Virus record (IMG/VR): IMGVR_UViG_3300000234_000002
Coordinates: 19,958 to 83,957 of that record
Direction: 5' to 3' (one strand)
Origin: a virus
DNA: 64,000 bases
Below, one piece after another: positions 589 to 24,376 of this stretch. Every line of letters begins with the position of its first letter. Within the stretch, counting starts at the first letter, position 1. Under the pieces are notes generated by a model that did not search any database, was not told the origin of the DNA, and saw nothing but the letters and a program-made list of their open reading frames with translations. A program made the translations under genes and the position numbers.

Positions 589-1008
589 TCAACCTGAATT
601 TTCAGAAGTCTCAATTATATCACAAAGTAAAGAATCTAGATAGTGATGAGAAAATTCGTCACCAAGAAAACCTAACGTCTGACTATCTCCCCATCTTTCA
701 TCAGATATTTCAACACCATCACAGGTAAAAACACCATCAGTGTTGTTTTTATCGAGTCGTCCATCAAATGTGCATTTTCTTCCATCGTGAAGAGTGAATT
801 CAAAATATCCATCAATTATATCAAATGATTTATCTTTTTGGCTAATATATTCTCGAATTTTCACAACATTTGGGGTGAATAAATTTCCGGCGATCTTCTT
901 AACAAGACCCTTTATAGCGCTTGCGACCCTCGCCTTATCAGGCGTCTTCGACGCCTCGATAGCGGCAGCGATTTTTCTTAACTCAGTGGCAACTTGCGAG
1001 GGCCTCAT
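589..1008 (-). CDS. Leader-cassette protein 1: conserved 40-aa leader + acidic variable domain
   Basis: Likely start is the ATG at 1008 (MRPSQVATELRKIA...), matching the other copies; the ORF track extends to a TTG at 1038. Confidence 0.75.
   Translation of the reverse strand: MRPSQVATELRKIAAAIEASKTPDKARVASAIKGLVKKIAGNLFTPNVVKIREYISQKDKSFDIIDGYFEFTLHDGRKCTFDGRLDKNNTDGVFTCDGVEISDERWGDSQTLGFLGDEFSHHYLDSLLCDIIETSENSG
889..1008 (-). repeat. 120-bp dispersed leader module, copy 1
   Basis: Near-identical nucleotide sequence to 1314-1433, 19022-19141, 20606-20725 and 24257-24376. Confidence 0.95.
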
Positions 1009-1025
1009 TGTGTTTCTTTTATCCG

Positions 1026-1050
1026 AGCTGCGGATCAAAGCTGCGGATCA
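1026..1050. repeat. 12-bp direct repeat AGCTGCGGATCA (13-nt period) at gene junction
   Basis: 1026-1037 and 1039-1050 are identical; the repeat spans the stop codon of 1035..2036. Confidence 0.85.
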
Positions 1051-2036
1051 CTAAACAAAAGACCGTCAATTTTTCCATCAATATTAATTAACTCCGATGA
1101 AGCTTTTACTAGAACATTTTGCTGACGAATGTAAAGACTTTCAATTTCATTTATAACATCATCGCCAAGATGACTGAATTCAGACCTCACATAATTCATA
1201 TTTAATGGCACAACAGCCTCTGATAAAGCTTCCAAAGCATAACCTGCACCCTCAAAGTCATTTAAAAATTTAGTAGCAAGGTTATTAGCATAAGATACAT
1301 ATTCATCATTGTGAGCGATCTTTTTAACAAGACCCTTTATGGCTGAAGCGACCTTCGTCTTATCAGGCGTCTTCGACGCCTCGATAGCGGCAGCAATTTT
1401 TCTTAGCTCAGTGGCAACTTGCGAGGGCTTCATGACATTTCCTTTATCCGAAGAAGTTTTCGTTTCGAGAACGTCCTTCAAAATTTCATTGAGGTCATTA
1501 TCAAGTTCTAGCTTTGCAGCTTTTACCTTTTCAATATAACTATCGTAAACTTTCTTTAATTTTAGCGCTTCATATTCTTCGACTCTCGGATGGTCGGCTT
1601 TAGGGAAACGCTTCAAACAAGAATCATAAGTTTTATACGCAGCATTGTAAGCATCGTTAAATTTTGGAACGAACGACTTATGGAATTTACTGAAGAACTT
1701 ATTGGCCGAGTTATTCCACTCGGACATTGAGTCTTTCTCTATATTTTCTTTAACCTGAGTTACAATGTCTTTCCCTTTAGCGGAAAGGTATTTCTGAGCG
1801 ATTCTTTTGGACACTAAGCTATTGGATGACACTTGTGAATTCCCAACTTCTTTTTGTGCCCAAGAATCACCTTCAGGAGTATTGTAGACCAGACATTTAT
1901 AACCTTGAATTTTCAAGTATCCGGAGAATGTTGAATCTCTAACAACATTCTCCGGTACATTCTTAACATCCCACTGGCCGTCAGGCTGTAAATGGAAACC
2001 GAGACCCGACGTCATTTTAAAATCGTCTGATAACAT
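1035..2036 (-). CDS. Multi-domain protein with internal leader module (cassette 2 fused in frame)
   Basis: 333 aa; contains SKRIAQKYLSA linker and internal MKPSQVATEL... at 1433, preceded by SD-like AAAGGA. Confidence 0.75.
   Translation of the reverse strand: MLSDDFKMTSGLGFHLQPDGQWDVKNVPENVVRDSTFSGYLKIQGYKCLVYNTPEGDSWAQKEVGNSQVSSNSLVSKRIAQKYLSAKGKDIVTQVKENIEKDSMSEWNNSANKFFSKFHKSFVPKFNDAYNAAYKTYDSCLKRFPKADHPRVEEYEALKLKKVYDSYIEKVKAAKLELDNDLNEILKDVLETKTSSDKGNVMKPSQVATELRKIAAAIEASKTPDKTKVASAIKGLVKKIAHNDEYVSYANNLATKFLNDFEGAGYALEALSEAVVPLNMNYVRSEFSHLGDDVINEIESLYIRQQNVLVKASSELINIDGKIDGLLFSDPQL
1314..1433 (-). repeat. 120-bp dispersed leader module, copy 2
   Basis: Direct sequence comparison with the other four copies. 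Confidence 0.95.
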
Positions 2037-2051
2037 CAGGTTACCCTAAAT

Positions 2052-2537
2052 TCACTCTCCGTGATGACCTTTTCCACGTCTATCGAAGTAATAGGTAGAA
2101 TTCTTCGACTGATCACCGTAAACGGAGTGAACAGCTTTCTCAATTTGCTCAAGCGGCTTATCGAGGTCCTCAACGGTGTCTACTTGCTGGAAAATTCCAG
2201 CAAGTTTATGGACCGAAGAAGCCAAAGTGCGACGAGCTTTGACGTCCGAGCGTCTCTCGGTCGCGGCTACTGCTTTCTTCAAAGTCTCCAGAATCGAAGA
2301 AATCTTCGAATAGATCTTCGCGTTGTGAGTAGAAGCGCTATGGAGAGTGTCGATTTGGCTGTGGATGAAACCGATGTCGTCTTTCATCGACTCTTTACCG
2401 AAAGATTCCTCAGCTTCGCTTGCCTGTTCACTTATAACTTTAATTTCTTCCTGAAGTTCTTGAACAGTATCCGTGACAGCTTCGGACTGAGGGTCCATAT
2501 TGGCAAGTTTGCGAACAGTGGAGATCAAAGATTTCAT
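2052..2537 (-). CDS. Hypothetical coiled-coil protein
   Basis: 161-aa ORF, SD-like AAAGGA upstream, helical composition. Confidence 0.7.
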   Translation of the reverse strand: MKSLISTVRKLANMDPQSEAVTDTVQELQEEIKVISEQASEAEESFGKESMKDDIGFIHSQIDTLHSASTHNAKIYSKISSILETLKKAVAATERRSDVKARRTLASSVHKLAGIFQQVDTVEDLDKPLEQIEKAVHSVYGDQSKNSTYYFDRRGKGHHGE

Positions 2538-2572
2538 GGTTTCCTTTCAATTCTTTCCTATCAATAGCTTAA

Positions 2573-4075
2573 TCAAACAAAAGAACTTTGGTTGGATTCT
2601 ATCAAAATGCTGTCTGGAGGTGATTGATATTTATGATGTTTCTTAGACATCTGGCCAATTTTATGATTATCAATAATTTGCTTAGTTGCTTTTATGATGT
2701 TGTCGAGGCTGAAATAGCATACGCCCTCAACAACTCTTCCTTCAGCCACAGCATTTTTAATCGTATTCTTAACCAAACTCTTGATATAGTCGCCAGTCAA
2801 ACCTTCAGTGAGTTCAATAATGTTGGAAAAAGAATCTGCGGTAAAACTATCATCATGCTGAGTGCAATATGATTTGAAGAACTTAGAAATCATTTCTCTT
2901 CTGTCGACAGCATCAGGAAGAGGGATTTCAATTTTCGAGTCAAATCTTCCAGGTCGATTGATAAGGGCTTCATCCATAGAAAAAACGTCATTGGTGGAAG
3001 CCATAACAACCACACCAGAGTTTTCTCTAGCACCGTCTAAACAAGCTAAAAACTCGTTCAAAATTCTTCCGGATCCACCAAAACTCGATCTATCTTGACC
3101 GAAAAGGTCCATATCTTCTATAAAAATTATGCAAGGAGTCAAAGCTCTGGCAGCTTCAAAAAGCGAAGTCACATGGTCTGCCTGATTTATTGACTTACCG
3201 GTGCACCATATGCGAGTCATGCCTTCCGAGACTTCACAGTCTATGGCTCGGAAAGTCATGGTTTTTGCCATACCGGGAGGTGATATGAGCATTACGTTAT
3301 TGGAAGGCGGCATCCCAAGTTCAAGAAATTTATCGGCATTCTTTAATATTTCAACAGTGTTATTTCTTATCATTTCCTTCAGAGAAGGCTTCATTATAAT
3401 GGAGTCCCAAGAGGTGTTGGTGACTTCACCAAAACCAAAAATTCCCTGATCATAAGTTAAACATTTCTTATAATAAATATCGTTTACCATTCTAGACTCG
3501 TCAAGATCAACCAAGAAATTCTCAGCAAGTTGAGAATTTTCAGGGTTCGTCATGACAGAGACACTGCAACTCATGCTTGTGTAGCACAAGTCCAAGTTCA
3601 CAGTCAAATTCTTATTCGTTTTACGGCATTTGACGAAAAAACATCCAAAAGCCGGAAGAAGCATTTTTTGATTTAAAGATATTTCAAAAAGCTCAGATTG
3701 AATTCTGAAATTGTAATCATTTTTAATCATATCCGAAAACTCATAAGAGTCCATGAACGGAATAATGTCGTAAGATGAAGAAGGTCCGTTGAAAAGGCAA
3801 TAGAATGAATAAGAATTCAGGGCTCGAGACCAGCTCGGATAGGTTCTATTTACAGAAGTGCACTTATAAAGAGAAGATTCAAGCCAAATCTCTTTTATGT
3901 GGTTAACCGGATCCGATGGATACCACTTTTGGGGAGCTTTTTTGTTTCTTTCATCGACCTTATAAAAGTAAGTGTCAACAAAGTAATTTATAAGACCTGA
4001 AACCATAGAACTGATATTATAAGGTTTAGAGTCAAGATTTTTAATATAATTAGCAGTTTTAGCTAAGTTACTCAT
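2573..4075 (-). CDS. AAA+ ATPase (classical clade)
   Basis: Variant Walker A ISPPGMAKT, Walker B IIFIEDMD, sensor ASTN, SRH DEALINRPGRFD. Confidence 0.88.
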   Translation of the reverse strand: MSNLAKTANYIKNLDSKPYNISSMVSGLINYFVDTYFYKVDERNKKAPQKWYPSDPVNHIKEIWLESSLYKCTSVNRTYPSWSRALNSYSFYCLFNGPSSSYDIIPFMDSYEFSDMIKNDYNFRIQSELFEISLNQKMLLPAFGCFFVKCRKTNKNLTVNLDLCYTSMSCSVSVMTNPENSQLAENFLVDLDESRMVNDIYYKKCLTYDQGIFGFGEVTNTSWDSIIMKPSLKEMIRNNTVEILKNADKFLELGMPPSNNVMLISPPGMAKTMTFRAIDCEVSEGMTRIWCTGKSINQADHVTSLFEAARALTPCIIFIEDMDLFGQDRSSFGGSGRILNEFLACLDGARENSGVVVMASTNDVFSMDEALINRPGRFDSKIEIPLPDAVDRREMISKFFKSYCTQHDDSFTADSFSNIIELTEGLTGDYIKSLVKNTIKNAVAEGRVVEGVCYFSLDNIIKATKQIIDNHKIGQMSKKHHKYQSPPDSILIESNQSSFV

Positions 4076-4101
4076 GCAAACTGTACTTTAATAGGAGCTT
4101 A

Positions 4102-5895
4102 TTAGAAGGACATAGAATCTAAATATTTATCCCAAATATAAATTTTATCTGAGAAATTCATATTCAATGAAATACTCGCAACAGAAGATGACTTTCTTCT
4201 TTTAAGGGCTTTATCTGCATATCCTCTTAGTTCCTCGTTTTCATTTTCTGAAATTTCTTCAAGTGTTTTTAAAGGTGTGTTTGGGTTGCCACAAAGCCAT
4301 ACTAATGTTATGAAATCACCAGTTTTTGAAAATTTATGGAGTACTTCAGGAGGACTTTTTGGATTGCTGGAGATAGACTTAATGAACTCTGGGTCTTCAG
4401 TATCCGAAAAACTTTCAATTATTTCGACGGGAATTTTCGGGTTATTGAGCAAAGAAGTTATTGAATGATGATCTCCATATTCAATGATTTCATTTGCGAT
4501 TTCATTATTAATATTTGAATTGCGAGCAATGCCTCTTTGAATATGGGGATCTTTTTTTCTTGCCAAAAGAATAAGAATTTCTGAAGAAACTTTTTTATTT
4601 GCACCTAAAGCGTTCAAAACTTCTTTGTTATGACTTTCTGAAAGTGCTTCAATAATTCCGGGTGTTATATTTTTATTACTAGCCAAACTTGCAAGAACTT
4701 CATGATCATCGTCCAATAAATTTTCAAGAATTTCAACAGGAGTCAAAGGATTAGATGCTATAACTGATCGAACTTCAAGGTCTTTGTCAGTTGATAATTT
4801 TTCGATAATACTCCGTGGTAAATTAGTATTAGTACCCAAAAAAGCACGAATCTCTGCACTTTCATGATTTGAAAATTTTTCTAAAGTATTAGCATCCGTA
4901 TTTGGGTTGCGAACAACACCTGAAAGAACGTCATAATCTTCGGAGTTTGAAAGTTTTTCCAAAATGTATGGTGGGGTGCTGTGATTATAAGCAATACCAA
5001 TATTAGTATTAACATCGTTTTCATCAAATAATAACTCAATCATATAGGGAGTCAAGTTTTCATTTGAAGAAATTGCTTTTTTTATTTCCTTATTGTCACT
5101 CTTAACAAGATCTTCTTGTTCTTTTTTAGATAACTCTTCACCCGACCCGAATTTTGCAAGTGCACTCTTTGGAGCATCTTTAGCTTTTTGATCGCAAACA
5201 TTCATAATACTATTGAAACTATCACCTAAATATTTTGAAACTTTATAATCAGAAAGTTGTTTGTCATAGGAGTTCCAAAATATTTTCTCTTCAGTGTTAT
5301 TATCAACGTCTCTTTGATAGCTTATCGCTATTTTATAAAGTGGATCCGAAATATCGGATTTTTTGTTTAATACGAAAAAGAAAACACAATTTGATAATTG
5401 ATACTCCTCATAATATGATGCACCCTTCATCGTTATACACCATTTAGAGCCTTGACCGTGGAATATTGAAGCAGCTTTATTTTTTATCCACAAAACTTCA
5501 AAATCATCATTTTCAAAAATTTTCTCAGAATCAGGAACTTCTTCTAGTTTATAACGTTTTTGAACTTTATCTTTCCTACCCGATTGGTTATCTTTCAATT
5601 CAAATAACTGGTCTCTAAGTTCCGTAAATTCATTAAATTTATACTGATAAATATCTCGCTTTTCTAAATTCTTCCCAAATTTCTCGAAAAGTTCAACAAC
5701 ATCAGCAATTTCAGCAGAAAGTGCTTGCCCAGACTCAAGTATTTTAAGTTCCCACTCAAGATATTTATTCTTCCCTTTTGTGGGATCTTTAGAACTAAAA
5801 TACTCTATGTCTTTTTGATACTGTGGATATTTGACTAAAGCATCTTTTTCTGATAATGCAGCGATAATTGAATATGCTATACGAACTAAATTCAT
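4102..5895 (-). CDS. GSKWC-motif domain + leucine-rich variant/HEAT-like repeat protein (paralog of 31364..33073)
   Basis: HGQGSKWCIT..YYEEY motif followed by about 12 repeats of A.NPNTP..IL..L. Confidence 0.8.
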   Translation of the reverse strand: MNLVRIAYSIIAALSEKDALVKYPQYQKDIEYFSSKDPTKGKNKYLEWELKILESGQALSAEIADVVELFEKFGKNLEKRDIYQYKFNEFTELRDQLFELKDNQSGRKDKVQKRYKLEEVPDSEKIFENDDFEVLWIKNKAASIFHGQGSKWCITMKGASYYEEYQLSNCVFFFVLNKKSDISDPLYKIAISYQRDVDNNTEEKIFWNSYDKQLSDYKVSKYLGDSFNSIMNVCDQKAKDAPKSALAKFGSGEELSKKEQEDLVKSDNKEIKKAISSNENLTPYMIELLFDENDVNTNIGIAYNHSTPPYILEKLSNSEDYDVLSGVVRNPNTDANTLEKFSNHESAEIRAFLGTNTNLPRSIIEKLSTDKDLEVRSVIASNPLTPVEILENLLDDDHEVLASLASNKNITPGIIEALSESHNKEVLNALGANKKVSSEILILLARKKDPHIQRGIARNSNINNEIANEIIEYGDHHSITSLLNNPKIPVEIIESFSDTEDPEFIKSISSNPKSPPEVLHKFSKTGDFITLVWLCGNPNTPLKTLEEISENENEELRGYADKALKRRKSSSVASISLNMNFSDKIYIWDKYLDSMSF

Positions 5896-5917
5896 ACTTT
5901 TTTTTCTTATTATAAGT

Positions 5918-6424
5918 TTATACAGACATTATTTTAAATGGAGGACGAACTGCATTGCTGTGAATAGAAGCAGCTTTCAATGCAGTTTTTATTCGGGTCT
6001 TAGGATCAAAACCAACAGTTGAGGCTAAAGAACCTAAACAGATTTCGTCTGCTATTCCTATTGCATTATAACAGTTTACGGATCTTTCTAAGTGGTAATC
6101 ATTGTAACTGGTCCAAATGCGACCTTTGCTACCAACTATTATTTGCCAGTCGTTTAAATTATATTTATTACTCTTTATGTATCGATGAAAAGAATCCATG
6201 AAGATGTTACCATCGTCATCCGATCCTAAAGGTTCTAACGGTTTAAAATTCAAAAAAGCCGTTTCAAATTTCCAATTTCCTGCAAATCCGACAAGCCAGC
6301 CATTTCTTTTAAAAAGTTTTTTATTTGTAACAGAACAAATAGTAGAATTCGACACTCCGGAACTAGCAGAGTCCGAACCGAACCAAACTTTCCCATCTGA
6401 TTCAATGCCAACTACTGCAGTCAT
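5918..6424 (-). CDS. HslV/proteasome-beta-like Ntn peptidase
   Basis: GAGG SD favours the start at 6424, giving M-T-AVVGI with N-terminal Thr; GSDS, K, GFAG, AIG, ALKAA...VRPPF motifs. Confidence 0.75.
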   Translation of the reverse strand: MTAVVGIESDGKVWFGSDSASSGVSNSTICSVTNKKLFKRNGWLVGFAGNWKFETAFLNFKPLEPLGSDDDGNIFMDSFHRYIKSNKYNLNDWQIIVGSKGRIWTSYNDYHLERSVNCYNAIGIADEICLGSLASTVGFDPKTRIKTALKAASIHSNAVRPPFKIMSV

Positions 6425-6433
6425 TTTCATTCC

Positions 6434-7648: not shown

Positions 7649-7703
7649 GACACAACAAATCGTAAAAAGAAGATTATTAAAAAGCGGTACAATTTTATTG
7701 AAA

Positions 7704-8021: not shown

Positions 8022-8083
8022 TAAGCAAAAAAGATTTATTTATATCATAACATTTAATAAGTATTTAATAGATATTAAATGTT

Positions 8084-9239: not shown

Positions 9240-9254
9240 TTCAAATATTACATT

Positions 9255-9729: not shown

Positions 9730-11487
9730 TTACATAGTTTTCAGCCATCTGACTTTTTTAAGATTTTCTTCGACTCGAACTAAACCCGCGTCCTTATAAA
9801 AATCATTCTCTGACATGTGGGAATTTTTTGCCATATCCCAAACTGTTTTCTTATTTATTATTCTATTATTTTCAACATCTAAATAGTGATATGATGGCGG
9901 AGATTCACCAAGTTTAGTCCAATTCGAAGCTAAATATATGGTGCCGTTATCACCAACATTAGGATCCGAATAACTAACCACAGCTTTGATTTCTTTATTA
10001 TTTATTTTCAAAAGCTTCAAAAATTTTCTTAAGGAAAAGCTGCTCAAATTCTTCAGATGATAGCTTGGATGAACACAAAATCTTCTAAGTTCTCTTATAT
10101 CTTTCGGACCGAATTTGGACCCGGTTTTATCATTAATACTTTTTATTGTTTGATTTCTACCAACTCCGCTGAAAGCAGATAAAACAACAAGTTTCCCATC
10201 AAGATATCCACCATAACATGTAACAACTGAACCTAAATTCCCAAGATAATGGTATAAAGAAAGGAATTCGTGGGCTTCATGATTTGGGCATTTTTTGAAT
10301 TCAATATTTTTAAGCTCAAAATCAAAAGACTCGGACTCCTTATGATATAATTTATTATCAAGAATTTTGGAGAGCTTGCCTAAGTGGATTTCGTGTTCAT
10401 AAATCCAAAGAAGTTTGTGATTCGTATTATTCTCAACATAAGAAGACTTCGACCTATCACGAGGATTACCAAAGTATCCATACTCTTTAAAATTGTGAAA
10501 ATAATCACCCTGGCACTCTATGAGCAAATTATGATCTGGAAGGAAAAAGTCAAAAGAGTAAGGACCTATATTATAATTATGATGGTAATTTACTTTATAC
10601 CTGTTTTCAAGCAAACCCATAACAATTTTTTCAGTAGAAGGAATTTTATTACTTGATCCTGGAATCGATAAAGTGCATTTTACTCCATATTTTCTTTCTA
10701 AAGTTTTTACAGTTTTTGCTCTTTTACATTCTTTTTTATTGCAACACAAATCTTCATATTTTTCAGTATATTTAGAAAAAGATAAGTCAAACTGAGATTT
10801 ACAATAATCACATAAAGCGCAAACTTTCTTAGCTGTTTTGAAATTTAAAGATTCGACATCATACCCGAATTTTTCTAAAGTTTCCTTTGCAAGTAAATTC
10901 GGGTTTAACTTTGGTTTTGTTCTCTCAATAAAATCTTTGTGGAATTGACTTTTAGATACGGTTTGATCTTTATAAGATGAAGATAAAGCGTCACATTTTT
11001 TACAAGCACCATTAACAGAATTCGTTATATTACACATTTTTGTTTCAAAAGTAGAATCACAAAATTCACATTTAGCTATAACATTTTTCCTAGAAATTGG
11101 TTTTATATTTGGATAAGAATACCCATATTTCATGTATGTTAATTTATTATCCATATTGCGATATGGTACAGAGTTTAAAAATAAAAAATAGCTTCTCTTA
11201 GAATGAGTAATTTCTAAATTTTCATAATCTTCGGAAATATTTGAACAACTTTGACAATTTTCTTTTAAACAAAACAGGCATTTCTTTTTACTTTTGAAAT
11301 AAGGAATGTCTAAAAGGTTTGTGGAACCATATTTCTTTATAAGAGTTTCCTTGTTTCTATTTAGCTTAACAAGATCTTTATCTCTTGATTTCCAAACTTC
11401 ACAATTCTTAAAATGTCTTTTTAAAGTAGAAGACGAATTCGCCCCCCAACCACATAAACAATGGTGGGAGGCGAATTTTTCAGTCAC
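9730..11487 (-). CDS. Zn-finger + Vsr/DUF559-like endonuclease + Mom-like GNAT fusion (free-standing homing-endonuclease-like)
   Basis: Multiple CxxC; FDFFLPDHNLLIECQGDYFH nuclease motif; C-terminal FLSLYHY..ELRRFCVHP..SYSD..GTIYLASNW. Confidence 0.75.
   Translation of the reverse strand: MTEKFASHHCLCGWGANSSSTLKRHFKNCEVWKSRDKDLVKLNRNKETLIKKYGSTNLLDIPYFKSKKKCLFCLKENCQSCSNISEDYENLEITHSKRSYFLFLNSVPYRNMDNKLTYMKYGYSYPNIKPISRKNVIAKCEFCDSTFETKMCNITNSVNGACKKCDALSSSYKDQTVSKSQFHKDFIERTKPKLNPNLLAKETLEKFGYDVESLNFKTAKKVCALCDYCKSQFDLSFSKYTEKYEDLCCNKKECKRAKTVKTLERKYGVKCTLSIPGSSNKIPSTEKIVMGLLENRYKVNYHHNYNIGPYSFDFFLPDHNLLIECQGDYFHNFKEYGYFGNPRDRSKSSYVENNTNHKLLWIYEHEIHLGKLSKILDNKLYHKESESFDFELKNIEFKKCPNHEAHEFLSLYHYLGNLGSVVTCYGGYLDGKLVVLSAFSGVGRNQTIKSINDKTGSKFGPKDIRELRRFCVHPSYHLKNLSSFSLRKFLKLLKINNKEIKAVVSYSDPNVGDNGTIYLASNWTKLGESPPSYHYLDVENNRIINKKTVWDMAKNSHMSENDFYKDAGLVRVEENLKKVRWLKTM
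11436..11478 (-). terminator. Imperfect GC-rich hairpin just after the sheath gene, overlapping the 5' end of the next ORF
   Basis: AATTCGCC...GGCGAATT arms with further inner pairing; weak U-tract. Confidence 0.4.
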
Positions 11488-11500: not shown

Positions 11501-14500
11501 TTAGGATCTAACGCGGACACTCAAAGTGGCCACGATGTATTCAAGCGGAAAGACCGGGACGTAGATAGCAGATACTCTGAGTATCGTTGGGTCGTTCTCG
11601 TCAGAAGCCACCTCAATACCAGCAACGGAAGTAACGATTTGCTGATCGATCAGAGTGGTGAAAGCGCCACTAATGGCGGTCTCAACGCTCTTGATGAGGT
11701 TACCGGTTAACTTCTGTCCGATGTAAGGGTCGAGAACCTGACGGAGAACCTTCTGTACGTATTGGATGGTAAGGACGACCGAAGGAGTTCTCGTGAGAAC
11801 CGAGTCAACGTTCGTGGTAAGAGCGTGTCGAACTCTGAGACCAGCCTGAACCTGCTCAATGATCGTTACGCCGTTAACCGCGATTTGGTTGGCTTCAGTC
11901 GGGTCAAGAACTCTTCCGATTCTTCGGAATCCCTGTATGGACCTTCTGGTAAGAGGGCTGGCGACATCAAAGGTCGGATTACAGGTCGAGGCGGCGTAAG
12001 CAGCGGCGGCGTAAGTTCCATCAACGAGTTGATCAACCAAATTACCAAGAGAATCCTGGACCGAGATTACGAAAGAGTCAGGGTAAACGACAGTTACGAG
12101 TTCCGAGTTCAAAGATCTTGCTATGGACTGAACTCCAAGAGGAGAAGTTCCGGTAGCAACACCAACAACGCCAGTACGCTCGCCCTCCTGACGAGGAGCG
12201 CTCATGAACACACAGTGCTGGTTGAGGTAACCAAACACCTGAGTATTCGAAGTCAGAGGAATAACGACGTCAGCAGGGGTAGAACCACCAATCTTCTTTT
12301 TCTGCTCATCAATTGCAGAGATGTAAGCAGAAACCGGAGCTTGGCTGCTATTGGCGGATCTAAAGACTTGCTTGAGACCAACAACAACGGCACCGTTCAA
12401 CTGAGCTATGCGAGCCGCGAGAGAAAGAGGACTATCAGGGGTCGGGGATCCGAAAGCCTGAATTATCTTCTTCGAGTCTCTGTAGAGCTGAGTCGAGATA
12501 TCGCTCTTGGCGTAGTCGTAGGAAATGTAGTAAACATCTCCTACCTGGGGCTCAATACCAGATCTATCGTAGGTTCTCACCAAGGAAGTCGTTCCAGGAT
12601 TCATATTGAATGTGTTGTAGACTGTGAGTTCTACACCATTCACTGCACGAATCGGAAGCGAAGCATCGGTTACGAAAGTCTGGTTAACTACGAGAGTGAA
12701 GCTTCCTCCGCTCGTATAATCACCAGAAGACGCCGGGAGAACCGTAAATCTCAGGCCCGTGGTCGAATCCGTGTAGGTCTGACCAGGGAATCCAGTTCCG
12801 TGAGAACCTAAGAGACCCTGAGAAGAAGCCACAGTGAATCCGGACTGAGCATTCTCACCAATATCGCCCGAAGATCCAACAACAATCCCCAAACCAGTGT
12901 CTTCAATCAGAGCCGAGTTGGCAACCGAACTGAATGCAACGGTGGAGCTGTTTCCAGTAGATCTGGAATTGACGGTCAGGTAATTTCCGAGACCCTGGAC
13001 CGGAACTTGGTAAGCAAAAGCCAAGCTGGAGAAAGAAGAATTTGCGTTTAACGCGTTAGCGATTTTCTTGGCAGTCGGCTGACTTCTCTGAACCGTGAGA
13101 CCGGGCTCAAGACCGAGAACCAAATTCGCGTTACCGGAGGTCTTGATGGTTATCAACGAGTTTACGGTGTTGATTCTGGAGGTAAGAACCAATTTACCGC
13201 TATTGATTCCCTGGCCGGTTCTCGCAACGAGTTCGTTGAGGAAGAAAGCGGAAGGGTTGGTCGTGTCGTTGGTGCCGTGGACGTGGTAGATTCCCTGAAT
13301 TTCAGCCAAGTGGAGAGGATACTTGGTCTGGAGTTCAGTAGTAAGAGTTATGAGAGTACCAGAGTTGGTCGCGTTCGCCGAAGTGATGTTGTTGGTTACA
13401 TCATCAACAACGTGAACACCGGACTGCAGTAAGTGAAGATTGAAGTCGGCCTTAAGCTCATTCGCGAGAGCAAGGGCGGTAGGACTGTCAACAGCATTGG
13501 TGGCTGTGATTATGTTGACAGTATCACTCGTCAAGTGAGCAGAAGCCAAAACGCGGTGAGCGTTATATTTGGCCTTCAAGTCATTGAGGATTGGGTAGCA
13601 GTCAGATTCAATAACCGGCGCCGACGCGGGGGTCAGAGTATTGGTTGCGTCGTCCTTACCATGAACGCCACGCTGCGTTAAGTGGAGATTGAACGCATCT
13701 TTGAGATCATTGGCGAGTCTAACAGCAGTAACCAAATTCGAAGCGTTAGCAGTTGTTACGACATTCAGAGTGTCGTCGAGCTGATGGATACCAGCTTGAC
13801 TCAAGTGAAGATTGAACTTGGTCTTTATATCATTTAAGAGCGTTAGAGAGTCACCAAGCGTAACGGCAACAGGCGCCGATATGGTGTTAACGGCATCTGC
13901 TATGACATGGAACACAGTAGAAACTCTGTGAGCTTCATACTTCGTTCTAAGGTTGTTGGCAAGAGCGATGACATCAGCCGTGTAAGTCGCAACATCGGCA
14001 GCCGAAGCATATTCGATGTAGACGTCGTTGATGGAAGTTACGACGTCATTAAGCGTTACAGCACTTCCAGACGGAATGGTGGCAGTTACGTCAACACCGT
14101 CAACGTTGATTTGGACGGAATCATTGACTCCGGCAGTCACATTGTACGGCGCCGTCTTGGTCGCGACGTAAGAAGCAACCTGATTTATGGAGTTATAAGA
14201 ACCCTGAGCGCTTGCGTTCGGAGAAAGACCAATCTTGGTCGATCCATCAGTCTGTCCAGATCCAGTCGGAGGAAGAACGAGAACAGAAGAAACGAGACCA
14301 TTGGTGAACGAAGGAACGCTTCGTCCACGAATCACGATGGCGTTTTCTGAACCGTAAGAAAGGACCGAGGCCAGAGCGTTGGGAGCGGAAGAAAGGAACG
14401 TTCCGGAACCGTCCGCGTGAACCTGAGTGTCGGCATCGACCGCAGCGTTTATAGCTGTAGCAACGTCCGAAAGAGTCGTAGCAGCCGAAATGTCGATGGG

Positions 14501-16552
14501 AGCAAGGGTAATCCCGTCGATCACAAGAAGCAATCTGTCAGTCGACAATGGAGTAACCGAAGCTACCGGATTACCCAAAAGAAGGGCTCGGAATGCGGTA
14601 GAAAGGTTAACAGTTACCGGTGCATTTCCGTCGATTACTACGCCACCAAAGTTCTGGCTGTAAGCGTAGATGTCGTACGGCTCCTGCTTCCCATTAGAGA
14701 AAGAAGCGTGGGTCGCGGGATTCAACGCGTTAGAGAACGTGACCGTGACGGTCTCCGAAGTCGGATTTCCGGCTCCAGTGTGGATGACGTCAGGAGCCTG
14801 TTCAGAGCCGGAAGGCCACTGAATGGTTTCAGGAAGGCCGGATTTGGTTCCGAACTTGGTTCCGTAAAGGTTTACGCCAGTGAGAGCGGAAGCTATCGTG
14901 TAAGTTCCGATAGAAGAAGGTCCAGGAGTCACAACGCTGAAAGTATAGGTATCATCTACTATTCTGTTATACCAGAAAGTAGCGAAAGCCTTATAATCAG
15001 CAGGAACCGGGCTCTTCAACGTGACTGTGTTGTTAGTTCCGTCAACTTCAGTCACAGCTACAGGAGGTCTGGAACTGGCATCTCTCCAGTTCTTACCAAC
15101 ATGAACTATGACAAGATCGGGTCTGTTGGTCGGAAGGTCAATTCTTCCGTTCGTAACAGTCTGATAAAGGGAGACACCAAGGGGCGTATCTCTACCATTT
15201 CCAGTGGTGGGGGTCAGGGGAAGAACGAACTTGCTCGTAGAAACCGAGTTCAAAACCGGATCTACGAATCTGGAGCACTCAGAACCATAAACACGATTAT
15301 CAACAAGCAAACCAACTATTTGGGTGCTGTTGAAAGCGGTATTTCCAGTCTGAACGCCGGAGGAAACGTTGAAAGTCGCCCCCCACTGAATTCTTGACTG
15401 ATCACCATCATTGGTAACAACGAAATCTTGACCATTGATATAATCACGACGACCCGGACCAATTCCGACGTTCCCAACATTCACAATGTTGGTATTCGGA
15501 AGGTAGTCAAAAGTGTCTTGGAAAGTATTGAAATAATAGGTGATGTTGACAGTCGAACCGTCAGTCGGAGCGAACGGGAGAGTCACCAAGCTATTAAGAC
15601 CGTCAACCGACGATGCAATAACAACCTGTCCGTTCACCAAAACGCTAACCTTCGTAATGTCAGTCGTTATGATTCCGCCATCGGAACCATCAACAATAGG
15701 ACCTTGGAAGGTTCTGAAAGACTTGTTGCGGGAAGTGGAAACTCCGGGATTAAACCCGAAAACGCCGTTGGCATTTCCACTACTTATCGTTATATTCCCG
15801 GCAGCGGTCAATCTGACGTGATTCAAGCCGTCAGCATCAACGTGGATCGAAGCAGTCAAACCGGTGATGTTAGCAGCGTTGACGTCATTAGCAACATCCG
15901 CAGCAGGACGGCTCGTACCGGCGGTTAAATTGACAGAGTAGGTGGTGAGATCGTTCACCACTAAAGTGAGAGTGTCGTTGGTTCCCGATACAACAGAGTA
16001 AGGCTCAGCTTTGGGAGCGGTAAGAATAGCAAGGCCAGCGCTTATTTGCTGGGAAAGATTGTCAGTTATTCTTACGTCTTTTCGGTGGAAGAAATAATTA
16101 ACAAGAACAACATCATCTTCATTCGGTGGAACCAAGATGGTCACCAAGCCGTTTACGCCGTCGACGGACGAAACTATAACAGACTCGTTATTGACAGTAA
16201 CAGAAACCTTGGTAACATCGAACGTGGTGAGACCACGACCCGAACCGTCCACTATAGGAACGTTTCTTACCTTAAACTGAGTTTTGGAACCATCCTGGTT
16301 ACCTAAAACAGGGTTTGAAAGAGTTCCACCAGAAACCCATCTACCAGTAACGTCCTCACCAAAAATGGGAGTATCAGCTACACTGCTGGAACCTCTCACC
16401 ATTTCATAGTTGGATTGCGATAAGGTCTCCTTACCGACACCGATAAGAACGGGAACTCGAATTCCACCAAGGTTCTGAGCCGCAGAGGGATCAGCAGAAG
16501 TAGAAACAGTCACACCAGGAGGAGTGTAGGTGGGGAAGGGACCAATCGCCAT
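11501..16552 (-). CDS. Contractile tail sheath protein, very large with inserted domains
   Basis: N-terminal YTPPGV, C-terminal DENDPTILRVSAIYVPVFPLEYIVATLSV typical of sheath; 1683 aa; AAAGGA SD. Confidence 0.88.
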   Translation of the reverse strand: MAIGPFPTYTPPGVTVSTSADPSAAQNLGGIRVPVLIGVGKETLSQSNYEMVRGSSSVADTPIFGEDVTGRWVSGGTLSNPVLGNQDGSKTQFKVRNVPIVDGSGRGLTTFDVTKVSVTVNNESVIVSSVDGVNGLVTILVPPNEDDVVLVNYFFHRKDVRITDNLSQQISAGLAILTAPKAEPYSVVSGTNDTLTLVVNDLTTYSVNLTAGTSRPAADVANDVNAANITGLTASIHVDADGLNHVRLTAAGNITISSGNANGVFGFNPGVSTSRNKSFRTFQGPIVDGSDGGIITTDITKVSVLVNGQVVIASSVDGLNSLVTLPFAPTDGSTVNITYYFNTFQDTFDYLPNTNIVNVGNVGIGPGRRDYINGQDFVVTNDGDQSRIQWGATFNVSSGVQTGNTAFNSTQIVGLLVDNRVYGSECSRFVDPVLNSVSTSKFVLPLTPTTGNGRDTPLGVSLYQTVTNGRIDLPTNRPDLVIVHVGKNWRDASSRPPVAVTEVDGTNNTVTLKSPVPADYKAFATFWYNRIVDDTYTFSVVTPGPSSIGTYTIASALTGVNLYGTKFGTKSGLPETIQWPSGSEQAPDVIHTGAGNPTSETVTVTFSNALNPATHASFSNGKQEPYDIYAYSQNFGGVVIDGNAPVTVNLSTAFRALLLGNPVASVTPLSTDRLLLVIDGITLAPIDISAATTLSDVATAINAAVDADTQVHADGSGTFLSSAPNALASVLSYGSENAIVIRGRSVPSFTNGLVSSVLVLPPTGSGQTDGSTKIGLSPNASAQGSYNSINQVASYVATKTAPYNVTAGVNDSVQINVDGVDVTATIPSGSAVTLNDVVTSINDVYIEYASAADVATYTADVIALANNLRTKYEAHRVSTVFHVIADAVNTISAPVAVTLGDSLTLLNDIKTKFNLHLSQAGIHQLDDTLNVVTTANASNLVTAVRLANDLKDAFNLHLTQRGVHGKDDATNTLTPASAPVIESDCYPILNDLKAKYNAHRVLASAHLTSDTVNIITATNAVDSPTALALANELKADFNLHLLQSGVHVVDDVTNNITSANATNSGTLITLTTELQTKYPLHLAEIQGIYHVHGTNDTTNPSAFFLNELVARTGQGINSGKLVLTSRINTVNSLITIKTSGNANLVLGLEPGLTVQRSQPTAKKIANALNANSSFSSLAFAYQVPVQGLGNYLTVNSRSTGNSSTVAFSSVANSALIEDTGLGIVVGSSGDIGENAQSGFTVASSQGLLGSHGTGFPGQTYTDSTTGLRFTVLPASSGDYTSGGSFTLVVNQTFVTDASLPIRAVNGVELTVYNTFNMNPGTTSLVRTYDRSGIEPQVGDVYYISYDYAKSDISTQLYRDSKKIIQAFGSPTPDSPLSLAARIAQLNGAVVVGLKQVFRSANSSQAPVSAYISAIDEQKKKIGGSTPADVVIPLTSNTQVFGYLNQHCVFMSAPRQEGERTGVVGVATGTSPLGVQSIARSLNSELVTVVYPDSFVISVQDSLGNLVDQLVDGTYAAAAYAASTCNPTFDVASPLTRRSIQGFRRIGRVLDPTEANQIAVNGVTIIEQVQAGLRVRHALTTNVDSVLTRTPSVVLTIQYVQKVLRQVLDPYIGQKLTGNLIKSVETAISGAFTTLIDQQIVTSVAGIEVASDENDPTILRVSAIYVPVFPLEYIVATLSVRVRS

Positions 16553-17080: not shown

Positions 17081-17091
17081 GTAAAACTATA

Positions 17092-18300: not shown

Positions 18301-18578
18301 GAATTTACGTTACTATAAAAACCTCGACGGATTCTTCCTATTTTCAAAGCTCCGTTAAGCCAGATTTTATGGTCGGAAATCTTTCTTTTAGTTCTCCTAA
18401 AACGAAGGATTTCCTTTATTATCTCTTTTTCTACTTGAATAAGTTGAGACTTACTAAGAGCTTTCGAATATTTGAAAAGAAGATCTAAAGAATAACTTGT
18501 CATATAGGTACTTCTACCAAGAGAGTATCGAATGGTGCTGAGTATAAGTACCCAAAGATCTTCATCAAAAACTTCCAT
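18297..18578 (-). CDS. Hypothetical protein
   Basis: 93 aa, STIRYSLGRSTYM; TGTAATAT-N5-ATG upstream. Confidence 0.65.
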   Translation of the reverse strand: MEVFDEDLWVLILSTIRYSLGRSTYMTSYSLDLLFKYSKALSKSQLIQVEKEIIKEILRFRRTKRKISDHKIWLNGALKIGRIRRGFYSNVNS

Positions 18579-18727
18579 TCAAGATATTACATTCGTAAAT
18601 TCAAAACTATTGAAGCGATATATCAAGAAAATGGTGAAAAAGTAAAGCCAAACCAAAACTCGGCTTCACACTTCATGTTGATAAATGGGTGTAGTATATA
18701 AATTTGGGTATAACTTCGGACACTGAA

Positions 18728-18776
18728 ATTTTGCGTGCAACTCGCCCTGTGGAAAACAGCGAGTTGCACGCAAAAT
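18728..18776. terminator. Perfect 18-bp inverted repeat immediately downstream of cassette 3
   Basis: ATTTTGCGTGCAACTCGC (18728-18745) / GCGAGTTGCACGCAAAAT (18759-18776). Confidence 0.7.
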
Positions 18777-18784
18777 GGAGTTAA

Positions 18785-19141
18785 TCACTCACGGGTACTG
18801 GGATGACCTAACTCTTCTATCATAGACATAATAATTTCCGTCTCTTCTTCCTGGTCTATATCCCCATCACTTTCACGAACCCAATCCGCATCTCTACCAT
18901 CTTTTTCAAGGCTTATTTTATAAGTGTGCTCTTGCCCATCAGGAGTTTGGCTTGTGACTCTCCACTCTTCCCATCTGGGGTCTTCCTCAGGAAGAACTTC
19001 TTTTTTCAATATGGGGGAGTTAGCGATCTTTTTTACAAGACCCTTTATGGCTGACGCGACCTTCGTCTTATCAGGCGTCTTCGACGCCTCGATAGCGGCA
19101 GCAATTTTTCTTAGCTCAGTGGCAACTTGCGAGGGCCTCAT
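18785..19141 (-). CDS. Leader-cassette protein 3: 40-aa leader + highly acidic 78-aa domain
   Basis: ATG at 19141 with GGAG upstream; payload has about 23 D/E versus 9 K/R. Confidence 0.8.
   Translation of the reverse strand: MRPSQVATELRKIAAAIEASKTPDKTKVASAIKGLVKKIANSPILKKEVLPEEDPRWEEWRVTSQTPDGQEHTYKISLEKDGRDADWVRESDGDIDQEEETEIIMSMIEELGHPSTRE
19022..19141 (-). repeat. 120-bp dispersed leader module, copy 3
   Basis: Direct sequence comparison. Confidence 0.95.
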
Positions 19142-19164
19142 GAAAACTCCGTGATATAAAAAAC

Positions 19165-20175
19165 TCAATCGCTCATTTGAGCGGCAGTGTGGAGACCGAG
19201 AGCAACAGCGTGCATAGGGTCAGATGCCTGTCTGATTTCCGATATTTCAATCGGAAATTTTGACTTCTTGGATTCAAAGATTTCAGTAAATTTATCCATG
19301 AAGCCCGAAGCCATGGAAGTTCCGCCAGAAACAATAATGGGAATGGGAGTGGAAAGAAGAAATTCAGACTTTGCTCTATGAAATTGAGAAATAATCTTAT
19401 CTATTGTATATTCGATAAGATTAGAAATGTAGAAAGAAATCGCTTCAGCTTCTCTTCCCCTTGGGTTCAAGATGTTAACCCCCGACTCTTTAATATGACA
19501 AGCCTTCGAAGCTGTGATCCCTAAAGCACTTGAAGCTCCAGCATCAATCCAATCACCACCTCTCCCGAGCGAGAATTCCAAAGCGCTCATCGCGTTGTAT
19601 GACAAACAAACATTTGTCATACCAGATCCATATGATATCCCAAGACCGGAGAATTTTGTGGATGAACCTTCGGAATAAACTATAGCGAGCGCTTCATTAA
19701 CTGGCTCCGGGTCGTAACCAGTTTCTTGGATTATCTTTTTGAGAATGCTGGTGTGATAAATGGTATTGGAACCGGCAATATCAATTGCCGGGGCCGGAAC
19801 AGAGAAACAGCATTTTTCGTTCGGGGACTTCGGCTTCCCGATGAGATTGTTAATTATAATGGCGATGACTTTCTGAGCCTCAACTTCACCGGACGAAACA
19901 ACACCGCCTGCGAGGGGTCTGCGGATTTCTTTGTTGAAAAGATTCGCAGAAGCTAATGCGTCATCACCAATAACATAAAGAGAACCATCAATTTCTACGA
20001 AAGCAGTGTTGCTGAGCTTGAGCATCCTCTTGTGCTCAATAGGCAAATCAAGGAAAGCATCCCTAACTCTTTTAATGGAAACTTTCTTTTCTGAACTTCG
20101 TGCAGCCACGAAGTTCATAGTTCCACAGTCTAGACCAACACCAAAGATTTCGTTTTTAGACATTTCGATAATCAA
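19165..20175 (-). CDS. Actin-fold ATPase (MreB/MamK/ParM-like)
   Basis: Phosphate-1 GLDCGT, connect-1 VNEALA, phosphate-2 SYGSGMT, adenosine IIVSGGTS, DPMHAVALG. Confidence 0.85.
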   Translation of the reverse strand: MIIEMSKNEIFGVGLDCGTMNFVAARSSEKKVSIKRVRDAFLDLPIEHKRMLKLSNTAFVEIDGSLYVIGDDALASANLFNKEIRRPLAGGVVSSGEVEAQKVIAIIINNLIGKPKSPNEKCCFSVPAPAIDIAGSNTIYHTSILKKIIQETGYDPEPVNEALAIVYSEGSSTKFSGLGISYGSGMTNVCLSYNAMSALEFSLGRGGDWIDAGASSALGITASKACHIKESGVNILNPRGREAEAISFYISNLIEYTIDKIISQFHRAKSEFLLSTPIPIIVSGGTSMASGFMDKFTEIFESKKSKFPIEISEIRQASDPMHAVALGLHTAAQMSD

Positions 20176-20197
20176 GTTACATCAAAGTTTTTATTTT

Positions 20198-20725
20198 TTA
20201 ATATTTGGAATTCTCATATTCACGGAAAGATTCAGCTAAATCAGAAACTCCTGATTCTTCTAAGCCTTCAATAATATCATTTGAATGAAATGCTCCATGG
20301 GAGCAAAACCAAATAATAGTGTCTTCTTTTTGTAAAAACTCTTTCATAGAAGAATATTTTTTGAACGACTTCTGATCAAATCCTTCGACTTCATCCCAAG
20401 TTTTTGATCCAGATCCCAGGACGTCAACAGGACTACTGGATTTTAAACTTTTCGGGTCTGAATTAATAGCAACAAAAACTGAGTCAGTAAAAGCTGCCCA
20501 AATACTACCGCTAACCTTTAAACCTTCTTTCATTTCATAAACAAGGTCCATAGCAGAATAATCGCCGTTATTTATATCGATAGATACAACTGAGGGAACT
20601 TCAGATGAGATCTTTTTAACAAGACCCTTTATGGCTGAAGCGACCTTCGTCTTATCAGGCGTCTTCGACGCCTCGATAGCGGCAGCAATTTTACGGAGTT
20701 CAGTGGCAACTTGCGAGGGCCTCAT
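20198..20725 (-). CDS. Leader-cassette protein 4: 40-aa leader + acidic variable domain
   Basis: ATG at 20725 preceded by TATAAT-N4; leader ends KKIS. Confidence 0.8.
   Translation of the reverse strand: MRPSQVATELRKIAAAIEASKTPDKTKVASAIKGLVKKISSEVPSVVSIDINNGDYSAMDLVYEMKEGLKVSGSIWAAFTDSVFVAINSDPKSLKSSSPVDVLGSGSKTWDEVEGFDQKSFKKYSSMKEFLQKEDTIIWFCSHGAFHSNDIIEGLEESGVSDLAESFREYENSKY
20606..20725 (-). repeat. 120-bp dispersed leader module, copy 4
   Basis: Direct sequence comparison. Confidence 0.95.
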
Positions 20726-20763
20726 GAAAATTATAGAAAATAAAAAAATAAAAAACTCAAGAT

Positions 20764-21306
20764 TCAAATTTTTGGTTTTTTACCTCTCAAATTTTTGAGA
20801 GCGTTTATAGATTCGTGGTTTCCTTCAACCTTCTTCTCTTCGGCATTAAAATTGACTTCACTATTTTCCGGGGTAATTTGGCTGGGTATGAATATTGGCA
20901 TACTATTATCGACAGCTTGTTCTGGTCGGGATGACTGGCTTGGCTGGAAATTACCAGAAGCGTTTTGCATAGTCTTCTCTAAAGACGATATCATGGATTC
21001 AAGTCTGTTCATAAGAGCGTCTACTTTAGACTCTTTAACATTATCAGGTTCATTTTTAATTACCATATTATTGATGATCTGAGGCGGCGGCGGTTGAGTA
21101 ACTTCTTCTTTGCGAAGAACTTGAGAGTGGACAACCTTTGTGGTATTGATAGGATGAACTGATATATAATGGGAAAGTCTACGAACATCTTGAGAAGATG
21201 AATATTGATGATCTGATATTATAGATTCACCTCCACCAGTTAAAGTTACTCCGATGTCTTCTATTGCCAAAGAAGTGTTCAAACGATTTTTTATTTTAAA
21301 CATCAC
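20764..21306 (-). CDS. Hypothetical protein
   Basis: 180-aa ORF coupled to neighbours by overlapping start/stop. Confidence 0.7.
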   Translation of the reverse strand: MMFKIKNRLNTSLAIEDIGVTLTGGGESIISDHQYSSSQDVRRLSHYISVHPINTTKVVHSQVLRKEEVTQPPPPQIINNMVIKNEPDNVKESKVDALMNRLESMISSLEKTMQNASGNFQPSQSSRPEQAVDNSMPIFIPSQITPENSEVNFNAEEKKVEGNHESINALKNLRGKKPKI

Positions 21307-23284: not shown

Positions 23285-23317
23285 AATAAAAAGATTTAAT
23301 CAAGAATTGAAACAAAT

Positions 23318-23599
23318 TTAGTCTTCTTCGACTAAGACGTGAAGTGAATATCCACCGTTTTCACCAGGTTCAACCGATAGTCTTTGTATTTTAGATTTAT
23401 CGAGGTCCTCATCGGACAAAACCTTCTGGACAGTTTGAACCTTAGCCTGATTAATGGTTTTTATTCTTGCGTCGAGTTCGTCGAGTTCATGCTTACGACG
23501 AACATACTCAACGGACCAATGCGTCAAAGATGCATCATACTCGGATATGCGGGTGAGGGTCTCGCCGGAAAGAGGAAATTTTTTAGTAACCATAGCCAT
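23318..23599 (-). CDS. Hypothetical protein
   Basis: 93-aa ORF. Confidence 0.6.
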   Translation of the reverse strand: MAMVTKKFPLSGETLTRISEYDASLTHWSVEYVRRKHELDELDARIKTINQAKVQTVQKVLSDEDLDKSKIQRLSVEPGENGGYSLHVLVEED

Positions 23600-23858
23600 A
23601 AGGAATAATACCAGGCTTAAATGTGATTTTTAACTCTAAATTATCCGCCGAAGCATAATGTCTATCAAGTCCGTATTCGTTTTTCGTTATATTAAGAGCT
23701 GACTCTACGGCAGCTTCTATTTCAAATTTAAGTTTTTCTTGGAGAGCATTCTTATCAACATCGCCCGAAAAATGAACTTCGAAAGATAGACTACCTTTTA
23801 TAAAATATTGGTTGTCGTCTTCACTGGCGATCTTAGTGGCAATTTTACCAAAATTCAT
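23583..23858 (-). CDS. Hypothetical protein with KIA-type N-terminus
   Basis: MNFGKIATKIASEDDN... Confidence 0.65.
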   Translation of the reverse strand: MNFGKIATKIASEDDNQYFIKGSLSFEVHFSGDVDKNALQEKLKFEIEAAVESALNITKNEYGLDRHYASADNLELKITFKPGIIPYGYGY

Positions 23859-24033
23859 AAAACATAATGAAAATTAAAAGAATAATACATGAAAATTAGT
23901 TATTAACTGTTAATTTAATCAACGCAGACTCTCGTCGAACACTATGACTAATGCCACATTGTCTCGTACAAGTCTTCATCATTTCACGTATAATAATGAT
24001 GCTTTTTATAAAATATTGGTTGTCGTCTTCACT
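23796..24033. repeat. Exact 30-bp direct repeat (23796-23825 and 24004-24033)
   Basis: TTTTATAAAATATTGGTTGTCGTCTTCACT twice; on the minus strand it encodes SEDDNQYFIK. Confidence 0.9.
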
Positions 24034-24376
24034 AGCTTTTGCTTGCAATTTTAACTTCATACTGAAATTCATTGCTACCATCCCAATACATCAGAATATC
24101 TCTTAATAGATCCTCATCACCAACAACATTCTCTAAAACACCATTTTGTAATTCATCAGTTGAAAAAATTGCAGAGTGTGATTCACCACCACACTTTGCA
24201 GTTATGAAATCAACATCACCTTCTTCAATTTTCACATCATAAATTTTTGTCTTTGTAGCGATCTTTTTTACAAGACCCTTTATGGCTGAGGCGACCCTCG
24301 CCTTATCAGGCGTCTTCGACGCCTCGATAGCGGCAGCAATTTTTCTTAGCTCAGTGGCAACTTGCGAGGGCTTCAT
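24032..24376 (-). CDS. Leader-cassette protein 5: 40-aa leader + acidic 74-aa domain
   Basis: ORF begins exactly at the leader ATG; TACAGT-N4-ATG upstream. Confidence 0.8.
   Translation of the reverse strand: MKPSQVATELRKIAAAIEASKTPDKARVASAIKGLVKKIATKTKIYDVKIEEGDVDFITAKCGGESHSAIFSTDELQNGVLENVVGDEDLLRDILMYWDGSNEFQYEVKIASKS
24257..24376 (-). repeat. 120-bp dispersed leader module, copy 5
   Basis: Direct sequence comparison. Confidence 0.95.

Follow-up and report, generated by a model that had tools for sequence, protein, structure and literature searches.

The DNA analysed here, referred to as the window, is a 64,000-nucleotide stretch of an uncultivated virus (bases 19958–83957 of the 83,957-bp IMG/VR record IMGVR_UViG_3300000234_000002, contig C1; CheckV completeness 20%). 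Within it, a 120-bp coding module specifying a basic 40-residue leader is joined to unrelated acidic protein domains in five genes. We consider that this 40-residue domain is an address tag that docks cargo to one shared receptor made by the phage, in all likelihood the inner side of the head during assembly, and place the probability of this reading at about one-half. Its core idea, that an unchanging address tag is fitted to changing cargo and that the DNA of the tag is a handle for recombination, had been put forward in an earlier reading of the letters alone (the sequence-only reading) and is supported by the unrelated payloads, by recurrence in several genomes and by recombination that is limited to the leader. 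The gene content of the window is that of a huge tailed phage, including a tail sheath, fusions of Mom-like and HNH domains, an AAA ATPase, an exonuclease, an actin-like protein and genes with collagen repeats. Sampled words of positions 18600–21000 were found at 98–99% in three DNA metagenome runs, possibly the source samples; no RNA dataset was listed.

Leader copies and exchange of the leader segment

Module sites were located using a degenerate pattern for the module core. Exactly five matches were obtained against a chance expectation of 0, all on the minus strand (938–966, 1363–1391, 19071–19099, 20655–20683 and 24306–24334). On alignment of the five copies, identity begins at the ATG and stops at KKI[AS]; pairwise identity over the 120-bp module is 86–97.5%, and in the 60 nt on each side it is 18–50%, a random level. 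The five near-identical copies with sharp ends that the sequence-only reading had described were therefore all recovered, and counting beyond the window, as that reading had suggested, added a sixth near-identical and a seventh diverged copy just upstream on the contig. A further diverged carrier, P0017, may be an eighth member of this genome's set. The copies are as follows (window positions, unless prefixed C1 for the contig).

889–1008, minus strand: leader copy 1, starting open reading frame (ORF) 589–1008 (139 aa, P0001); 99-aa payload, isoelectric point (pI) 4.4
1314–1433, minus strand: leader copy 2, residues 202–241 within ORF 1035–2036 (333 aa, P0002), own ATG retained; C-terminal payload of 92 aa
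1434–2036, minus strand: N-terminal 201 codons of P0002; residues 8–190 are 42% identical to P0031, a stand-alone 205-aa protein of another contig
19022–19141, minus strand: leader copy 3, starting ORF 18785–19141 (118 aa, P0003); 78-aa payload; slot empty in the related contig G005
20606–20725, minus strand: leader copy 4, starting ORF 20198–20725 (175 aa, P0004); 135-aa payload; full-length ortholog in G005
24257–24376, minus strand: leader copy 5, starting ORF 24032–24376 (114 aa, P0005); 74-aa payload
C1:16559–16678, plus strand: leader copy 6, near-identical, 3.3 kb ahead of the window start; encoded protein 83 aa long, its 43-aa payload carrying a net charge of −10
C1:18800–19270, minus strand: leader copy 7, diverged; starts with MKPSKVASELRKIAAKIQNSVRPERGVVAQELKKIIRSI; E = 2e-15 against the module profile

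As the sequence-only reading had described, each of the five copies runs in frame into a different acidic domain. Copy 2 does not stand at the start of an ORF and is internal to ORF 1035–2036. Because the N-terminal part of P0002 matches the stand-alone P0031, the upstream gene has lost its stop codon and is fused with, or read through into, the leader gene. The leader itself has a pI of 10.4 and a net charge of +6, and the five payloads (99, 92, 78, 135 and 74 aa) have pI values of 4.2–4.4 and net charges of −9 to −14. No similarity was detectable when the five payloads were compared mutually (all E > 0.3), a Pfam and PHROG search of the five leader proteins gave no match, and no fold or family could be assigned to any payload; the roles as injected effectors, DNA mimics or anti-defence proteins proposed in the sequence-only reading are thus conjectural. 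In a word-index search for payload homologs, P0004 retrieved itself alone. AlphaFold modelling of P0004 together with its one ortholog gave a predicted local distance difference test (pLDDT) score of 49.8, and the model was left out of the fold search.

Relatives were obtained by a scan of IMG/VR, which returned 14 loci on 11 contigs, and seven of these contigs (110–427 kb) were taken further. Comparison with them allowed a simpler origin of the copies to be weighed, in which one gene was recently duplicated and its 3' part then diverged. High DNA identity among six leaders is what such a duplication would leave, but the payloads and flanks show no residual similarity where the leaders differ by just 2.5–14%. 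The variable sites of the leaders also form a mosaic, in which five of the six pairs of informative site groups (positions 5; 27–33; 76/80; 108) show all four gametes within 120 bp, so that repeated recombination or recurrent mutation is needed. Finally, P0004 aligns end to end with its ortholog in G005 (26% identity over 178 aligned columns, E = 5e-18), which already bears a leader, now diverged. The leader–payload pair is therefore older than the split of the two phages, and the P0004 leader is now 87–96% identical in DNA to the leaders of five unrelated genes. Plain gene duplication, to which we attach next to no probability, is refuted by the sharp identity boundaries and the P0004 orthology.

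These comparisons show the near-identity of the six leaders to be the outcome of recent recombination, among genes, of the leader segment alone, by gene conversion or cassette spread. Recombination of the leader DNA had been proposed from the sequence, and the four-gamete mosaic and the P0004 ortholog with its diverged leader bear the proposal out. Near-identity at the nucleotide level, in contrast, did not hold up as a general property: it is specific to the lineage of this genome, and the copies in relatives are old, diverged paralogs with a within-genome DNA identity of only 38–77%. Homogenisation of a coding stretch of about 120 bp among unrelated genes is thus clearly exemplified here, set against ordinary diverged paralogs in the seven relatives.

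As the sequence-only reading had noted, the modules are richer in GC than their surroundings, with a GC content of 0.49–0.53 (contig, 0.39) and a GC content at third codon positions (GC3) of 0.53–0.60 against 0.17–0.37 for the payloads of the same genes. The GC3 of the six homogenised leaders also exceeds that of the diverged seventh copy (0.40) and of all modules in relatives (0.18–0.51). A foreign source or GC-biased conversion could account for these high values.

Besides the leader segment, entire leader genes have changed place. G002, G003, G005 and G006 share a conserved gene order between the sheath gene and ORF 23318–23599, and the slots of copies 3 and 4, which flank the actin-like gene, are empty in G005 and filled in G002, G003 and G006 by other ORFs, all lacking the module (one in G006 is HNH endonuclease-like by eye, and two are Pro/Ala-rich). 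Since these slots are empty or otherwise filled in relatives, leader genes as a whole must have entered a conserved gene order. A direct repeat lies next to copy 5.

23796–23825 and 24004–24033, minus strand: exact 30-bp direct repeat, the upstream copy of which supplies the stop codon of the copy-5 gene

This upstream copy duplicates, in a shifted frame, the beginning of the next gene (23583–23858) just past the short leader of that gene, and it runs on as a decayed duplicate of the 5' end of the gene (ORF 23896–24081). It looks like the scar of a leader-gene rearrangement.

Recombination handles are known from the PeSL cassettes of T4-type phages, in which short conserved sequences at gene boundaries serve to shuffle variable genes (PMC2839356, PMC4122927). 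PeSL elements, however, are non-coding and consist of a promoter and stem-loop, whereas the repeated handle described here is coding and has no conserved stem-loop.

A protein domain found in one phage clade

With the 40 residues as query, HMMER returned 27 matches at E ≤ 0.001 from 1.84 billion representative proteins; 20 of the matches are encoded off this contig. Each of the seven related contigs holds 3–7 module copies as counted by the module profile at domain E ≤ 1e-8, and 5–10 raw matches at looser thresholds. Across the copies in relatives, residues P3, L10, R11, I13, A14, I17, S20 and P23 are invariant, and third codon positions vary freely. As the residue pattern is kept while third codon positions vary, the constraint acts on the protein, and the module is conserved as a domain of protein rather than as an element of RNA or DNA.

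The opposite view, that the conserved unit is a nucleic-acid element overlapping gene starts (an RNA hairpin, a translational operator or a homing or recombination site), draws on the conservation of synonymous sites among the six copies and on an invariant 36-nt core containing a GGCGTC-GAA-GACGCC hairpin, with a folding z-score of −2.1. It does not agree with the free third positions just described. The hairpin is kept neither in relatives nor in the seventh copy, which lies in the same genome and maintains the protein pattern with different DNA. RNAalifold on the relatives gave −0.13 kcal/mol and one compensatory pair, Rfam gave no match, and the exact 36-mer was absent from viral and metagenome contig collections. 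A nucleic-acid element is largely refuted by these results, and we judge it very improbable.

AlphaFold modelling of a protein with two modules placed in each of them a helix at residues 3–19, a loop at 20–24 (S-K-x-P-D) and a second helix at 25–39, with a mean pLDDT of 72. The module is thus predicted to be a basic helix-loop-helix hairpin. A PDB profile search with the module returned designed helical or helical-hairpin repeats only, a Foldseek search with the doublet model returned nothing at E ≤ 0.001, and an ESM Atlas search returned no usable match. No Pfam or PHROG model reaches threshold for the leader family. Sub-threshold matches to Pfam DUF7433 (PF24212) recurred in 7 of the 10 carriers scanned, at 13–17 bits (cut-off, 24.2) and over profile positions 29–49, and are considered a lead only. 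Two candidate relationships were rejected. A link to the Mu gpI scaffold was indicated by one doublet (PF10123, 22.9 bits, below the cut-off; phrog_328, E = 1e-4) but was not reproduced, and PF10123 has no match in this contig; homology of the leader to a conserved 162-aa protein of the head block with a similar-looking hairpin received an hhalign probability of 0.4%.

The position of the module within its carriers was then compared. Most commonly it occupies the very N-terminus (M-K/R-P-S-Q...). Doublet carriers of 88–133 aa consist of two modules with a Pro/Ala-rich linker between them; other proteins end in a pair of modules, some LRV-repeat proteins are flanked by one on either side, and in yet others the module is internal, behind an unrelated N-terminal region and usually with its Met retained. 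With internal, C-terminal and doublet placements, a folded, self-contained docking domain fits better than an N-terminal signal, and the strictly N-terminal signal envisaged in the sequence-only reading was not upheld.

The domains joined to the leader in relatives are pentapeptide repeats (PF00805, 120 bits), a ferritin-like domain (PF00210, 25.2 bits; cut-off, 24.5), LRV repeats and many orphan domains. The ferritin-like and pentapeptide-repeat domains are found in long leader fusions at L048:2150–2707 (G006) and L033:1910–2491 (G004), respectively. The same architecture in seven related huge-phage contigs and in the 20 further metagenomic proteins supports the proposal of a portable protein tag on unrelated cargo. 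Ferritin-like, pentapeptide-repeat and LRV-repeat proteins, together with many acidic orphans, would make an unusual list for phage heads.

As far as tested, the family is confined to one clade of uncultivated huge phages. No hit was obtained by tblastn of the module in 50,697 cultured or deposited phage records or by megablast of 4 kb, and a pattern scan of GTDB species genomes found no relative of the module.

Cargo of this kind might also suggest that the leader binds a host molecule, such as DNA or the nucleoid through its charge of +6, and that the payloads are host-directed effectors made in the cell and never packaged. The pentapeptide-repeat fold can mimic DNA, as in MfpA and Qnr, and both the basic hairpin (pI 10.4) and the presence of pentapeptide repeats and a ferritin/Dps-like domain among the cargo of relatives are in keeping with this explanation. 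We nevertheless consider it unlikely: DNA binding by the leader is only conjectural, the pattern scan did not find the module in cellular genomes, and both the family of short N-terminal motifs and the position beside head genes, described below, are left unexplained.

Leader genes and the phage head

A weak PF05065 signal in the relatives pointed to a 295-aa ORF (L056:7153–8040), identified by PHROGs as the major head protein (phrog_2522, E = 2e-46), and a 517-aa ORF three genes upstream of the head protein gene has a head-maturation-protease domain (phrog_18299, E = 4e-9). The major head protein is 92% identical in G002, G003 and G007. Proteins of 444 and 228 aa are candidate scaffolds of the clade. 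T4-type Gp23 (PF07068) and HK97-type protease families had no matches in the relatives; the T4-type protease PF03420 had no match in five records, a search that was silent in control genomes too. Six relatives include the major head protein gene, and every one of them has leader genes at a distance of 0.1–16 kb from it. Within the head block they follow the head protein gene and do not stand between the protease and head protein genes. Their arrangement is as follows.

G005: leader gene is the first gene after the head protein gene, and is the full-length ortholog of P0004
G004: leader gene 1.8 kb after the head protein gene, with two unrelated ORFs between
G002: four leader genes, 2.9–11 kb after the head protein gene
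G003: one leader gene 3.4 kb away on the other strand, and a double-module LRV gene 5.7 kb away among head-block genes
G006: shortly after the head protein gene, six tandem short-motif ORFs that diverge past the motif, then a long-leader gene, then two more short-motif ORFs
G007: leader gene 16 kb from the head protein gene

With leader genes adjoining the major head protein gene and a head protease encoded nearby, a capsid-targeting role is the best, if circumstantial, reading, and the link of leader to head suggested from the sequence alone is plausible. The leader would dock its cargo onto the inside of the assembling head, whether on the scaffold, the shell or the portal. In this way tagged cargo would end up inside the virion, much as T4 internal proteins do by means of their capsid targeting sequence (CTS); removal of the tag by the head maturation protease may follow, and the cargo could be delivered together with the DNA. 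If the leader is a head-loading tag, it provides a sequence rule by which packaged, and possibly injected, proteins could be listed across a whole clade of uncultivated huge phages, and could also be carried over to foreign proteins as a means of directing them into large capsids.

Several observations weigh against loading into the head. This contig does not contain the head genes, so the link to the head rests on the relatives, and because these share gene order they represent one conserved neighbourhood rather than six independent ones. Most leader genes are scattered, away from head genes. Known targeting or scaffolding domains gave no sequence or fold match (Pfam, PHROG, PDB profile, Foldseek and hhalign). 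The KKIA end, after which the sequence-only reading had placed a putative cut, is not conserved in relatives, and C-terminal, internal and doublet modules do not fit a cleaved N-terminal propeptide. Strongly acidic cargo is also an odd companion for packed DNA, and the proteasome-like ORF and AAA ATPase beside copies 1 and 2 leave room for another receptor.

Some of these points are shared by a different explanation, in which the leader serves docking or oligomerisation in general and has nothing to do with the head, either pairing with itself or with other copies in four-helix bundles or binding the AAA ATPase and its proteasome-like neighbour, the tail or the actin-like protein. Mixed complexes would thereby be assembled, or proteins marked for unfolding. 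Doublets with a Pro/Ala linker exist, and AlphaFold packs their two modules together with a predicted template modelling (pTM) score of 0.55; the module is found at either end of proteins; copies 1 and 2 lie beside an AAA ATPase (PF00004) and an ORF of HslV-type appearance; copies 3 and 4 flank the actin-like gene; and identical copies would preserve mutual recognition. Mutual identity is not required, however, since copies within the same genome have diverged in relatives. Adjacency to the actin-like gene, considered as a possible conserved feature of leader genes, was rejected because relatives do not share it. No family match was obtained for the proteasome-like reading, and the sole conserved neighbourhood found is the cluster beside the major head protein gene. 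A head-independent docking module is the main rival reading and is regarded as somewhat unlikely.

Three of the genes named above have features of their own.

5918–6430, minus strand: 170-aa ORF starting MKMTAVVGIESDGKVWFGSD, resembling by eye an N-terminal-nucleophile hydrolase of the HslV/proteasome type; no Pfam match
2573–4075, minus strand: AAA ATPase, near the 170-aa ORF together with an LRV-repeat protein; the ATPase and the 170-aa ORF may be a candidate phage-encoded unfoldase–protease pair
19165–20175, minus strand: actin-like protein (Volactin, PF25216, E = 5e-70), 57–64% identical in four related huge phages and within the conserved block from the sheath gene to ORF 23318–23599

Besides the long leader, a short motif, M-D/N-F/L-x-K/R-I-A-x-K/R-I-A/I, is found at ORF starts. 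The pattern [KR][IM]A..[ILV][IASV] has four matches in this contig, all four within the first 15 residues of an ORF and none elsewhere in 26,241 aa. In the fetched loci of relatives, 15 of 24 matches to the short motif are N-terminal, a zone that makes up about 8% of residues. At L058:9303–11592 in G006, each of the six tandem, variable small ORFs beside the major head protein gene starts M-D/N-F/L-x-K/R-I-A-S-R-I/V-A. Genes of the window that start with the short motif are listed below.

23583–23858, minus strand: short-motif gene starting MNFGKIATKIAS; motif kept at the syntenic place in three relatives
4102–5895, minus strand: LRV-repeat protein starting MNLVRIAYSII
31364–33073, minus strand: LRV-repeat paralog starting MDFSRIASLII
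59764–60153, minus strand: 129-aa ORF starting MKFLFLSRIAKLIS

The LRV-repeat proteins of relatives have the long module, either at one end or at both. In sequence the short motif is reminiscent of the first helix of the module (L-R-K-I-A-A-A-I), a likeness that need not reflect homology of the short and long leaders.

Cargo loading by portable tags has precedents outside tailed phages. Encapsulin and microcompartment tags are short, portable linear peptides (C-terminal in encapsulins) that send diverse enzymes, including ferritin-like ones, into shells, and the encapsulin shell has the HK97 fold. These tags have no similarity to the module, and the shells concerned are not virions. We tentatively suggest, as an extension that is itself rather uncertain, that a two-tier address code made up of the 12-residue N-terminal motif and the 40-residue hairpin might load changeable cargo, including ferritin-like and pentapeptide-repeat proteins, into an HK97-fold head as a viral counterpart of encapsulin loading, with the coding DNA of the tag doubling as the recombination handle that moves it onto new genes. 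Scaffolding proteins of the P22 type offer a second comparison, in that their small basic coat-binding helix-turn-helix docks to the inside of the shell through electrostatic contacts, the rest of the protein being acidic. The likeness to the P22 scaffold is in shape and charge only, with no sequence or fold match.

The internal proteins packaged by T4 and other T-even phages are described as a diverse set in which only the CTS is conserved; this tag brings them to the scaffolding core, after which the prohead protease cuts it off (PMC3012670, PMC5694885). The leader system is similar in having a constant leader (six to seven genes) on unrelated payloads, a 12-aa N-terminal motif, a head protease in the clade and genes near head genes. 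This likeness is one of design, not of homology or membership. The CTS has 10–20 residues, whereas the leader is predicted to be a folded hairpin of 40 residues that is also found internally, at the C-terminus and in doublets. There is no sequence similarity to IPI, IPII, IPIII, Alt or the CTS (Pfam, PHROG and the 50,697 phage records), the junction V-K-K-I-A has no L/I-x-E cleavage motif, and the protease domain is a different one (phrog_18299). T4 internal proteins are also known to be packaged, and the leader proteins are known from their genes alone. In phiKZ-like giant phages, multi-copy families of head proteins (SPN3US gp53/gp54, phiKZ gp93–95) vary in number between relatives and have N-terminal propeptides that are cut by the prohead protease (PMC5694885). 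Unlike these inner-body or ejection families, in which the whole protein is homologous (PF12699), the genes described here share the leader alone and give no family match.

Other genes of the window

Further features of the window were recorded in the course of the analysis. The 581-position PHROG sheath profile is about a third as long as the tail sheath protein, and known sheath families match the last ~350 residues of the protein only.

11501–16552, minus strand: tail sheath, 1,683 aa (phrog_2839, E = 3e-25)
9730–11487, 24400–26190 and 27223–28632: three proteins joining HNH/endonuclease VII-type nuclease domains to a Mom-like (GNAT) domain
42046–50632 and 57488–58429, minus strand: very long genes with collagen-like Gly-X-Y repeats, encoding 947, 541, 1,370 and 313 aa, by which local GC is raised to 0.45–0.58

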